A stretch of 43,532 nt of DNA from Promethearchaeota archaeon (GTDB taxonomy: Archaea; Asgardarchaeota; Lokiarchaeia; Sigyniarchaeales; SOKP01). A model generated the notes under the pieces. That model did not search any database. It was not told the origin of the DNA and was given only the letters and a program-made list of their open reading frames with translations. A program made the position numbers and the translations under genes. The DNA is taken from assembly GCA_016839585.1 (NCBI GenBank), contig JAEOTZ010000044.1, forward strand, positions 1 through 43,532, read 5' to 3'. How positions within the stretch are numbered: the stretch's first letter is position 1; every line of letters begins with the position of its first letter. Shown in pieces: positions 1 to 10,316 of this stretch.

Positions 1-578
1 GCTTGAGCAGCATAATAATAATTTTTGTTATCATAGTAAATATTTGCCATTTGGATAAATATTGGAAATCTCATCCATGCATTTTCAATATTTAATGGAG
101 AATCACCATTAATCATAGCTAAACATAGAGCTTGAAGTGCTTGATGAAAATTTCTAGGATTCAAATTTAAAAACGCTTCTAAACTGAGATAATTAACCCA
201 AATGGTTTCCAATAAGTCATTTACTGACATTGGTAAAACACCATTTTGATCATAAAAAATTATAACTGTTGGTATATCTCTCTTAACCGAAAATATATCG
301 GGAAGAAGCATCTTGAATAATTCAAATTCTCCTACTTCCAAAGGATTTAAAAAGTAAACAATTCCGTCAGCAGTAGGAAGTAGCTCATCAAAATCAGCTG
401 CAATATTTGTAATAACATCAACTTCTAAATCGCAATAATCTTCTAAAACCCTTATTTCCCTATACCATTCGTTATAAGATTCTTTTTCTTCTCCAATTTC
501 ATTAAAAGCTTCAGAAATATAAAGGTCAGATATTTCTGGATTGCCGGAAAAGATTAAGATTTTGAAGATATATCGCAT
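1..578 (-). CDS. Degenerate small-GTPase-fold (pseudo-GTPase) protein, probably followed by a helical/TPR-like region; runs off the window edge
   Basis: Not in the ORF track. Hand translation from ATG at 578 is open to the window end: MRYIFKILIFSGNPEISDLYI...DLEVDVIT...ADGIVYFLNP...DIPTVIIFYDQ...MANIYYDNKNYYYAAQ. The strand order matches a Ras/Rab G-domain, but GxxxxGKS/T, DxxG and NKxD are all absent. Confidence 0.65.
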   Translation of the reverse strand, partial: MRYIFKILIFSGNPEISDLYISEAFNEIGEEKESYNEWYREIRVLEDYCDLEVDVITNIAADFDELLPTADGIVYFLNPLEVGEFELFKMLLPDIFSVKRDIPTVIIFYDQNGVLPMSVNDLLETIWVNYLSLEAFLNLNPRNFHQALQALCLAMINGDSPLNIENAWMRFPIFIQMANIYYDNKNYYYAAQ

Positions 579-803
579 TTTTATAAAAATTATCAAATTT
601 TTTTTTAATACTTATTGTATAAATATTTATGATTCTTTTTTATTTTTATTTTATAACAAGGAACTATATTGATTAGAATTAACTCATAAAATTAAGAGTA
701 TAAAACTTATGATAAAATTTATTATTAGAAGGGTTCTTTTAAATATAATTATTTAAATTCAAGTGTTTATAAAAATTTTTAAGGACAAATCGGAGATTCA
801 ACA

Positions 804-1466
804 TTGGATTACATTGAAAGGAATTATCATATTATTGAACAAAGAATGATTGAGCAAATGGAACACTCTATAGGATTAGGAAGACAATTAATTGAGACAG
901 AATTGGATACAGGGTTATTAAACTTTATCGTAAAACCTATAGTAAAGACTTTTTATGATTTTTGGGCTAAAAATGATGCAAGGTCTGGAACTTTAAAACA
1001 AATTAAAATTACTCTAGATAGCGGTAAAGAATTATTACTTAATGGCAATTTAGAACAAAATCTTGATAAAATTGTTGAAGAAAACTTTCCAAAATATCTT
1101 GAAGCAGATCAAACGCATACCCAATGCTCGAAAACACATCACAATTATGAAAGAATAAAACAAGTTGCAAAAGAAACGTTTATGAATTATTTGAAAGAAG
1201 TGATAAAGCTTTTAGAAGTAAAGGATGATGTAGAAAATTATGGAGACTTATGTCGGGTAGCATTTCCTTCCAGAGAAATAGCTGAAGAGAATTTAATGAG
1301 ACAGTTAGATTGTACAGAAAAAGGTATTGAAATAGTTGAAGAGGATCTTTCAATTCTTAAAATCCCATTAGGACGAAAAATTATTGTCAAAGCACTTAGA
1401 CGAGGTCTTGAGTTAACTAAAAAAGAATTCATTGATGCTTTAAATGATACATATAATCAAAAATAA
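804..1466 (+). CDS. Hypothetical alpha-helical protein, paralog of 1577..2236
   Basis: 220 aa ORF with TTG start and GGAG just upstream. Aligns end to end with the next ORF. Confidence 0.85.
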   Translation: MDYIERNYHIIEQRMIEQMEHSIGLGRQLIETELDTGLLNFIVKPIVKTFYDFWAKNDARSGTLKQIKITLDSGKELLLNGNLEQNLDKIVEENFPKYLEADQTHTQCSKTHHNYERIKQVAKETFMNYLKEVIKLLEVKDDVENYGDLCRVAFPSREIAEENLMRQLDCTEKGIEIVEEDLSILKIPLGRKIIVKALRRGLELTKKEFIDALNDTYNQK

Positions 1467-1576
1467 TTAAACTATTAATTTTATAGTTGATTTAAAATAA
1501 TATAAGTTCTATTTTTCTTAAAACAGAATAATAAAGATATAAATTATACTTGATCAATCCTGTTGGAGAATAACTC

Positions 1577-2236
1577 ATGAATTATATGAATAGAAACTAT
1601 AAAATCTTAGAACGAAGAATGATTGATCAAATGCAAATTTCACTCAATTATGGAAAATCCCTTATTGATTCTGAATTGAATGTTGGTGCTCTAAATTTTG
1701 TTGTAAAACCAATTGTACAATCATTTTATAAATACTGGTCTGATAAAGATGCTAAAGTGGGAACATTAGAACAGATAAGAATCACTCTTGATTCTGCTAA
1801 AGAACTTGTACTAAATGGAGATCTTTCAAAAGAAAAATTGGATAAAATTATTAATCGAAATTTCCCTATTTACCTAAAGCATGACCAGACAAACATGCAG
1901 TGTAAAAAAAATCATTCTAATTATCTAAGACTCAAAGAAGTCACAAAAAAATGCTTTGAAACACAGGTTGAAGAAAGTCTCTTATTTTTAAAAGTTGAGG
2001 AAGATATTAAAGATTACACTGAATTATCGAAAGCAGCATTTAAATACAAAGAAAAAGCATATCAAGCTTTAAAGCGTCAGTTAGACTTTAATGAGGAGGG
2101 TATTTCGATTGTAGAAGAAGATGATTCAATTTTAAAAGTTCCTATCGGCAAAAATATAATTTTAAAAGTACTTCGAAAGGGATTTGAACTTACAAAAGAA
2201 CAATTAATAGAAGAGCTTGACCACATTTTCAATTAG
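1577..2236 (+). CDS. Hypothetical alpha-helical protein, paralog of 804..1466
   Basis: 219 aa ORF with GGAG upstream. Shared motifs: RNY, LNFxVKPIV, GTLxQIxITLDS, DQTxxQCxKxHxNY, RQLD, SILKxPxG. Confidence 0.85.
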   Translation: MNYMNRNYKILERRMIDQMQISLNYGKSLIDSELNVGALNFVVKPIVQSFYKYWSDKDAKVGTLEQIRITLDSAKELVLNGDLSKEKLDKIINRNFPIYLKHDQTNMQCKKNHSNYLRLKEVTKKCFETQVEESLLFLKVEEDIKDYTELSKAAFKYKEKAYQALKRQLDFNEEGISIVEEDDSILKVPIGKNIILKVLRKGFELTKEQLIEELDHIFN

Positions 2237-9668: not shown

Positions 9669-10316
9669 CTATTCTTTTTTTTGTTCCCGAGATAAGGACA
9701 TCATTTTTTTTATGACTTTATTATACTGTTCTCTAAAATCTTCAATGCTCTCAACCATTTCCCTAAAATATTCCAACCATTTTATCTCTGCTTCATTGTG
9801 AAGCCTCCAATGTTTTAGAGGAAGTATGTAGAATGGATTTAAATCATAGAGATAAAGAGATTCAACTAGTCTCTCCCCTTCATCAGCATGCTTGAACATA
9901 TTTTTCCTCTCCTTAAGTTGTTTATCTATAGAATCTACTATGATTTGTTTTCCCTTAAAGATACCAAATAGCAAAATAAATGGAGTTGCAGCATCTATAT
10001 CAAAATATAATTCTTTTATTTGATTAAGGAAAAAAGAAATCTGTTCTTGAAATTCCATTTTACCTTTATTTAATAATTTATAGATAATTTGCTCGGGACG
10101 ATTACCTTCTTGCTTAGATCCTACTTCTTTAATGAACCCATCTCTTTCAAGTTGCTTTAATGTATAATAGAAAGATGCTTTCGTAGCCTTAATATAATGA
10201 TCATAACGCCATTCTTTTGCTAAAGAAATGAGTTCATAACCACTCATAGGTTTAGGATTTGTACTCATTACACCCAATATAAATGTTTTTAATGGTGTAT
10301 ATCTTTTTTTTGGCAT
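9669..10316 (-). CDS. PadR-family transcriptional regulator
   Basis: ILGVM..KPMSGYEL...SFYYTLKQLERDGFI...RPEQIIYKLLNKGK, plus the C-terminal EAEIKWLE helix. Confidence 0.9.
   Translation of the reverse strand: MPKKRYTPLKTFILGVMSTNPKPMSGYELISLAKEWRYDHYIKATKASFYYTLKQLERDGFIKEVGSKQEGNRPEQIIYKLLNKGKMEFQEQISFFLNQIKELYFDIDAATPFILLFGIFKGKQIIVDSIDKQLKERKNMFKHADEGERLVESLYLYDLNPFYILPLKHWRLHNEAEIKWLEYFREMVESIEDFREQYNKVIKKMMSLSREQKKE

Follow-up and report, generated by a model that had tools for sequence, protein, structure and literature searches.

PseudoGTPases have been reported mainly from eukaryotes, as scaffolds and as assembly chaperones (PMC12490416, PMC5593906). The biochemical criterion for class i is that the domain neither binds nor hydrolyses guanine nucleotides (PMC12490416), and the class-i heads described in AAGAB, CENP-M and p190RhoGAP are protein-binding modules (PMC12490416, PMC5593906). 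The N-terminal psGD of AAGAB, CENP-M and the pG1/pG2 domains of p190RhoGAP share with the protein described here a conserved Ras-like fold from which the G motifs are missing. This protein is encoded at the edge of a 43,532-nucleotide stretch of Asgard archaeal DNA (the window). It is probably a dead G-domain head of Ras/Rab descent carried on a TPR-like platform, serving as a nucleotide-independent scaffold or adaptor.

A preliminary description of the same DNA had claimed an unannotated open frame within positions 1-578. The frame is real: it lies on the minus strand (window 3-578), running from the ATG at 576-578 (MRYIFKILIFSG...) to window base 3 with no stop codon before the window edge. 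As it appears only in an open-ended frame listing, it was missed by the ORF track. The upstream limit of the frame is at window 596, and the ATG at 578 was chosen as the start because orthologues begin MRY. The peptide strings on which the preliminary description relied all fall where it had put them: YIFKILIFSG at residues 3-12, DLEVDVIT at 50-57, ADGIVYFLNP at 70-79, DIPTVIIFYD at 101-110 and MANIYYDNKNYYYAAQ at 177-192. Their assignment to β1/G1, β3/G3, β4 and β5/G4 agrees with the AF2 secondary structure, with hhalign and with the HMM alignment.

Window base 1 is also base 1 of contig C29, in a genome of 3.45 Mb and 91 contigs. Window 1-127 is identical to G000:C78:14984-15110, an exact 127-nt overlap between two contig ends of the kind typical of an assembler k-mer overlap. 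Because the assembly breaks inside the gene, gene callers report two partial genes. The frame resumes on contig C78 and continues for ~880 further codons to a stop, so that C78 and C29 joined give an unbroken 1,071-codon gene from the ATG. Support for the join comes from: the colinearity of relative P0003 (1,071 aa; 94% identity to the window piece and 95% to the C78 piece); the finding of no second copy in a search of the genome; and the flanking genes of the two contigs, which occur in the same order on single contigs in seven other genomes of the family. The split over two contigs could in principle reflect a decaying pseudogene or a contig-end assembly artefact. This explanation can hardly be correct, as the overlap restores the full frame, the gene order recurs on single contigs in eight other genomes, dN/dS is well under 1 and intact orthologues are present in >130 genomes. 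The product, ~1,071 aa long and cytosolic, comes from a single-copy gene found in one order of Loki-type Asgard archaea. Its features and those of its neighbours are collected in Table 1.

Table 1. Features of the candidate scaffold gene and its surroundings. Positions are window positions unless a locus or contig handle precedes them; parts of the gene beyond the window are given in full-length residue numbering.
Feature	Position	Strand	Basis or remark
5' part, codons 1-192, of the ~1,071-codon pseudoGTPase-TPR candidate scaffold gene	1..578	-	ORF, overlap and relative P0003
Remainder of the gene	G000:C78 12346-15110 = L005:9347-12111		On contig C78
Predicted Ras/Rab-like pseudo-G domain, residues 1-160	99..578	-	AF2, Foldseek, VIA
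G1 remnant, S11-G12-N13-P14	537..548	-	AF2 (E2-11, H14-25), HMM alignment
G3 remnant, D54-V-I-T57, end of β3	408..419	-	AF2, family alignment
G4 remnant, Y109-D110-Q111-N112, replacing [N/T]KxD	243..254	-	hhalign register; conserved Y-D-Q-N-G
G5 remnant, E134-A-F-L-N138 after β6, replacing ETSAK	165..179	-	AF2; conserved E-A-F-V-N
Near-invariant linker (PLNIENAWMRFPIFIQMAN) and first solenoid helices, residues 161-192	3..98	-	AF2 (H164-183, H187-191)
Solenoid layout: TPR-like array ~167-441; 64-residue helix; second array ~513-696; long helices			Full-length numbering
Near-consensus TPR (GNRLFNKGKYEEAAKIYEKA), ~235-285	L005:11700-11860	-	Designed-TPR match
Two ~130-aa modules, ~755-890 and ~935-1071	L005:9347-9760, ~9900-10300	-	Duplicated helical modules with LPLFEEE ends
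Divergent intergenic spacer, 225 nt	579..803	.	Common to the candidate scaffold gene and the 220-aa gene
Tandem 220-aa all-helical paralogues, no Pfam family	804..2236 (804-1466, 1577-2236)	+	Always divergent from the candidate scaffold gene
Membrane protein, 348 aa	2284-3330	+	ECF-transporter S-component-like (PF07155) fused to DUF2085 (PF09858, CxxC)
Rag/Arf-like GTPase, 423 aa	L005:6952-8223 = G000:C78:9951-11222	-	Pfam Gtr1_RagA 1.3e-20, Arf 3.6e-20
Double winged-helix regulator of sister-family genome G089	L024:11492-12166	+	HTH_20, ArsR/MarR-like

The AF2 model of the head, built on a 38-sequence family alignment, has a pLDDT of 91.7 and a pTM of 0.87. Its predicted elements are: β1 (2-11), α1 (14-25), β2 (35-44), β3 (47-56), α2 (63-69), β4 (72-77), α3 (82-97), β5 (104-108), α4 (119-129), β6 (133-137) and α5 (141-157). 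The resulting order, β1-α1-β2-β3-α2-β4-α3-β5-α4-β6-α5, is Ras-like in the model, with a six-stranded sheet that includes an antiparallel β2. Foldseek returned at least 500 PDB matches for the head; among those listed all are Ras, Rab, Rap or Ral proteins at probability 1.00, with a best E of 6e-9, identities of 11-18% and a target-normalised TM of ~0.72. VIA-align, a search independent of Foldseek, placed Rab23 first among 48,161 representative chains (Z 16.9, 153 residues aligned, rmsd 2.7 Å), followed by Sec4 (Z 16.5), Rab3C, Rab32 and Ypt32. Its top 30 rows are Rab/Ras/Rho/Ran-type GTPases (Z 13.8-16.9, ~140-170 aligned residues), and Arf6, MglA and RagD score ~13.3-13.7. By these rankings, the predicted fold is Ras/Rab-like rather than Arf-like. 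The preliminary description had named a structure other than a G domain as evidence that would count against it; by AF2, Foldseek and VIA-align, the predicted structure is a G domain.

Sequence comparison bears on the descent of this fold. Pfam finds no G-domain family in the protein even at E <= 1, with the Ras, Arf, Roc and Gtr1 models included. Searched as a single sequence against 1.84 billion representatives with phmmer, the head retrieves its own family only (45 clusters), as does a search of the ESM Atlas, and the profile of the full family had no significant sequence match in the PDB. Alignment of the head to the genome's Ras profile by hhalign is weak (probability 16%, E 1.5e-3) and in register at β4 and G4. 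When a head-only profile was run against 400 genomes of the phylum, strong matches fell inside the order only, and the matches outside it were weak (per-genome E 2.5e-5 to 1e-2). Four of the latter, out of five fetched, were examined (E 2.5e-5 to 1.7e-4); each is a genuine small GTPase whose motifs are intact, and three of the four align to the head profile from β1 through β5 or beyond. Together with the fold, these outside-order matches support descent of the head from a Ras/Rab-like GTPase. As judged from profiles and a predicted model, the probable homology rests mainly on fold and on modest HMM matches.

The lack of a Pfam G-domain match, and of any GTPase in the single-sequence phmmer search, would also be expected if the head had arisen by convergence, as a flavodoxin- or Rossmann-like alpha/beta domain with no GTPase ancestor. 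Such an origin is very improbable: the best 50 VIA-align rows are all GTPase G domains, with no CheY or flavodoxin families among them; the predicted order of elements is identical to that of the GTPases, down to the antiparallel β2; and the outside-order matches examined are real small GTPases, three of the four in register from β1 through β5.

The preliminary description held that every G-box of this Ras/Rab-like domain is eroded. The loss of the motifs stands, but 'eroded' understates what happened at G1, where the P-loop has been physically cut by 4-5 residues. The loop between β1 and α1 of the head comprises two residues (G12-N13), compared to ~6 in Ras, and the P-loop is 4-5 residues shorter. 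Consistent with this, when the head HMM is aligned with genuine small GTPases, the 'GGVGK' or 'GSVGK' of the GTPase aligns as a five-residue insertion. The Walker A 'GxGK' of the head has therefore been deleted, not just mutated. At G3 the aspartate is kept in 125/144 aligned sequences and the glycine of DxxG is absent family-wide. The register at G4 was confirmed by hhalign, using a profile built from ten Ras-family sequences of the same genome, and at G5 the SAK is replaced by F-L-N.

These losses are a property of the family. Intact P-loops in orthologues had been named beforehand as evidence against the pseudoGTPase reading; among 143 full-length family members, 0/143 contain Walker A (GxxxxGK[ST], first 60 residues) and 0/143 contain NKxD. 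The Walker lysine and its Ser/Thr, the guanine-specificity residues of NKxD, and SAK are missing in 143/143, and the residues that replace them are conserved across the family as G-[D/N]-P, Y-D-Q-N-G and E-A-F-V-N. The head is also the best-conserved region of the protein, with a mean pairwise identity of 45% as compared to 23-44% in other regions. Relaxed selection on this copy, which the preliminary description had named together with intact orthologue P-loops, is not what the head displays: its dN/dS against metagenomic relatives is 0.06-0.09 at dS ~0.24-0.27, indicating strong purifying selection. By these sequence comparisons, the loss of the motifs is ancestral and selected.

A GTPase fold, here in the predicted model, and missing G-motif residues are features of class-i pseudoGTPases, and the head is most likely unable to bind or hydrolyse GTP, making it a class-i-type pseudoGTPase. 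Two conserved acidic residues, D54 and D110, lie close to what was once the nucleotide pocket, where they might have a role in binding a ligand. With D54 at the G3 aspartate position, N112 conserved as well as D110, and the head under strong selection, one could propose that it binds a nucleotide or another small ligand non-canonically, through a class ii/iii arrangement or a re-purposed pocket, and acts as a ligand-regulated switch. This is unlikely: the two-residue β1-to-α1 loop of the model would allow no phosphate-binding anion hole to form, and the Walker lysine and Ser/Thr, NKxD and SAK are gone from every one of the 143 members. A class-i-type head thus remains our reading of the domain.

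Past residue 160, the protein is of a different nature. The preliminary description had claimed a helical, TPR-like continuation, and this is borne out by an all-helical model, by matches to TPR scaffolds and by one near-consensus TPR. The 920 C-terminal residues are modelled as helical hairpins throughout (pLDDT 85.7), with a pTM of 0.38, so that the modules are locally confident and their mutual arrangement in the model is uncertain. One repeat matches designed consensus TPRs with an E of 2e-9; the best Pfam TPR_2 score, 22.8 bits, is under the 27-bit cut-off. A sequence search for natural TPR proteins gave none that was significant, FKBP52 and RPAP3 reaching only E 0.08-0.3. In a separate observation, the near-consensus TPR superposes best on the EEVD-binding TPRs of co-chaperones (Sti1, CHIP, Sgt2, PP5).

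The two ~130-aa modules at the C-terminal end both begin K/RRK..R.YF/YY and end LPLFEEE, and hhalign relates them with a probability of 99.8% (E 6e-28); no Pfam family was found for the module. Family members of ~1,240 aa carry a 173-aa insertion between the two modules, ending LVLFEPE, which by eye looks like a third copy of the module. As a speculation, the near-consensus TPR could act as a carboxylate clamp for the acidic LPLFEEE motifs of this protein, either within one molecule or head-to-tail between molecules.

Structure searches with the solenoid raise the question of whether it has a eukaryotic counterpart. The top Foldseek matches are Ski3, Ctr9, subunits of IFT-A and the APC/C, and Tom70, with probability 1.00 but a TM of ~0.1. 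VIA-align places gamma-SNAP first (Z 14.7, rmsd 27 Å on the 920-residue model), and generic TPRs come next at Z 9-12; according to the calibration of VIA-align itself, helical repeats reach such Z values by chance. If the Ski3, Ctr9, IFT-A and gamma-SNAP matches were taken at face value, the protein would be a diverged orthologue of a eukaryotic TPR/SNAP subunit (Ski3/TTC37, Ctr9, IFT-A or alpha/gamma-SNAP), and hence a eukaryotic signature protein whose role in one particular machine has been conserved. We regard this as quite unlikely. The global TM of ~0.1 comes with an rmsd of 27-50 Å, and the leading Z lies within the chance range for helical repeats. Moreover, natural TPR proteins gave no significant match by sequence, an exhaustive HMMER search gave the protein's own family only, and an N-terminal G-like head is present in none of these eukaryotic proteins. 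Specific orthology to Ski3, Ctr9, IFT-A or SNAP was considered and is unsupported at a TM of ~0.1. What is supported is a TPR-like solenoid across the C-terminal ~900 residues, at fold-class level and with no specific orthology.

The family to which this pseudoGTPase-TPR protein belongs is narrowly distributed. The gene occurs once per genome, and a profile search detected it in three families of the order, in 121/134, 13/14 and 1/1 genomes respectively. Four genomes of a fourth family (63-88% complete) yielded no copy, and the remainder of a 400-genome sample of the phylum gave no strong matches. The database relatives, among them Lokiarch_03720 of Lokiarchaeum GC14_75, come from Lokiarchaeota/Promethearchaeota MAGs, in line with the Asgard archaeal origin proposed in the preliminary description, and their annotations read 'hypothetical' or TPR protein in every case. 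The source genome has a large small-GTPase expansion: 51 matches to Pfam Ras (PF00071) at E <= 1e-10, of which several lie within long multidomain ORFs (330-660 aa). In the literature searched, no published description of this family was found: no paper names both Asgard archaea and pseudoGTPases, none concerns Lokiarch_03720, and a preprint of 2026 that clusters Asgard solenoids by structure contains no link between GTPases and TPR solenoids and never uses 'pseudo'.

The gene order conserved across the family is: Rag/Arf-like GTPase; TFB; candidate scaffold; one or more 220-aa helical proteins; and ECF-S/DUF2085 membrane protein. The divergent transcription from a novel gene cluster that had been claimed is confirmed by the pair of 220-aa genes, which lie on the plus strand. 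These paralogues share invariant DQT..QC...H.N residues, and where a genome has just one copy, it is of the type resembling the gene at 1577-2236. A 220-aa gene is present in 25/25 and 2/2 genomes of two families and in 0/123 elsewhere, a phyletic pattern equal to that of the candidate scaffold; the genomes behind these pairing counts are related, so the counts are not independent. The 220-aa gene lies divergently, 186-344 nt upstream of the candidate scaffold gene, at 19/19 metagenome loci with enough upstream sequence, and it stays close to that gene even in the sister family, where the candidate scaffold is 27% identical. The pairing is as old as the family. A complex prediction between residues 1-445 of a 95%-identical relative and the 220-aa protein of the window returned a score of 0.00, which weighs neither way.

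Between the two divergent genes, the half of the spacer nearest the 220-aa gene is conserved in relatives at 65-97% protein identity, with TAATTAT..TTAAAAGA and ATTAATTTTATGTGTT blocks; the part beside the start codon of the candidate scaffold is not conserved. The spacer may be a shared promoter or regulatory element. Synteny of the membrane protein gene with the candidate scaffold gene and with the 220-aa gene extends to the sister family. There, a winged-helix regulator and a 168-aa ORF separate the candidate scaffold gene from the 220-aa homologue, and on the other side a 775-aa protein without a Pfam family replaces TFB and the GTPase.

The Rag/Arf-like GTPase lies two genes from the candidate scaffold on the same strand and is syntenic across the window's family. 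Its G1 (GLDNAGKT) and G3 (WDLGGQ) are intact and HKFD replaces NKxD; the G domain is flanked by N-terminal and C-terminal extensions of ~140 aa and ~90 aa, and a paralogue is encoded on contig C26. The GTPase was considered as an obligatory partner and rejected: with this query, its unique N-terminal extension was found in 22/25 genomes of the window's family and in 0/2 of the sister family. As the extension was found only in the window's family, the link to the GTPase is shallower than that to the 220-aa gene. Both the 220-aa protein and the GTPase nearby are candidate partners.

A more far-reaching model would have the candidate scaffold, its paired 220-aa protein or proteins, and possibly the Rag/Arf-like GTPase form an order-specific Asgard assembly, whose frozen G domain would serve permanently as a 'GTP-state mimic' or as the hand of an assembly chaperone. 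This is doubtful at present. If true, the assembly would be a prokaryotic precedent for the AAGAB-type pseudoGTPase scaffolds and assembly chaperones of eukaryotic membrane trafficking.

The reading we favour, a nucleotide-independent scaffold or adaptor, is drawn from the fit of a GTPase fold with missing G motifs to the class-i pattern. Mechanistically, it would involve: a head that, with its P-loop deleted and G3, G4 and G5 replaced, no longer binds or hydrolyses GTP; use of this frozen G-like head as a 'hand' that binds proteins constitutively, by analogy with AAGAB, CENP-M and p190RhoGAP; and the binding of further partners by the TPR arrays. The pseudoGTPase interpretation of the preliminary description is thus supported on the two points it had singled out, orthologue P-loops with selection and the predicted fold. 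Its terms 'nucleotide-free' and 'adaptor' are inferences, as are the role as a scaffold and the choice of candidate partners; nucleotide binding is excluded by sequence and model geometry.

The kinds of module involved, a pseudoGTPase and a TPR scaffold, are already known; what is new is their fusion in an archaeal protein with a putative function. An Asgard order with dozens of live small GTPases appears to have fixed, at an early date, a dead GTPase joined to a very large TPR platform, and to have kept the gene single-copy, near-universal in the order and under strong selection. The family is also relevant to the question of whether the G fold came to be used independently of switching before eukaryotes arose. 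The ~160-aa head, the 220-aa neighbour and the Rag/Arf-like GTPase would offer a tractable entry to the wiring of Asgard small-GTPase networks.

Compared to AAGAB, CENP-M and p190RhoGAP, the archaeal protein likewise carries its dead domain inside a larger protein, and the known proteins act by protein-protein interaction; in AAGAB the dead head is N-terminal, as it is here. In contrast to those three, the present protein is archaeal, with no sequence relationship to their domains detected, and its fusion to a ~900-aa TPR solenoid is an architecture not reported for them. Loss of nucleotide binding is a biochemical result in the eukaryotic proteins and a prediction in the archaeal one (PMC12490416, PMC5593906). 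With the Ras/Rab GTPases (PF00071) the head has in common its predicted fold and order of elements (Z up to 16.9) and a residual in-register similarity at β1, β4 (xDGxxxxx[DN]) and β5; it differs from them in lacking Walker A, DxxG, NKxD, SAK and a Pfam match, and in being part of a 1,071-aa protein rather than a switch of ~180 aa. Ski3/TTC37, Ctr9, IFT-A and the TPR subunits of the APC/C resemble it as superhelical platforms in which TPR-like hairpins extend over hundreds of residues. This match is one of fold class (TM ~0.1) without sequence homology; a G-like head is absent from the Ski3, Ctr9, IFT-A and APC/C subunits, and the LPLFEEE modules are the family's own. Finally, a Ras-like domain and a TPR protein also come together in prokaryotes as MglA with SgmX in Myxococcus (PMC7519303) and as MglA with a TPR protein in Bdellovibrio (PMC3983030). 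The MglA of both systems is an active GTPase and a polypeptide of its own, whereas in the archaeal protein the G-like domain is probably dead and is covalently fused to its TPR-like platform.
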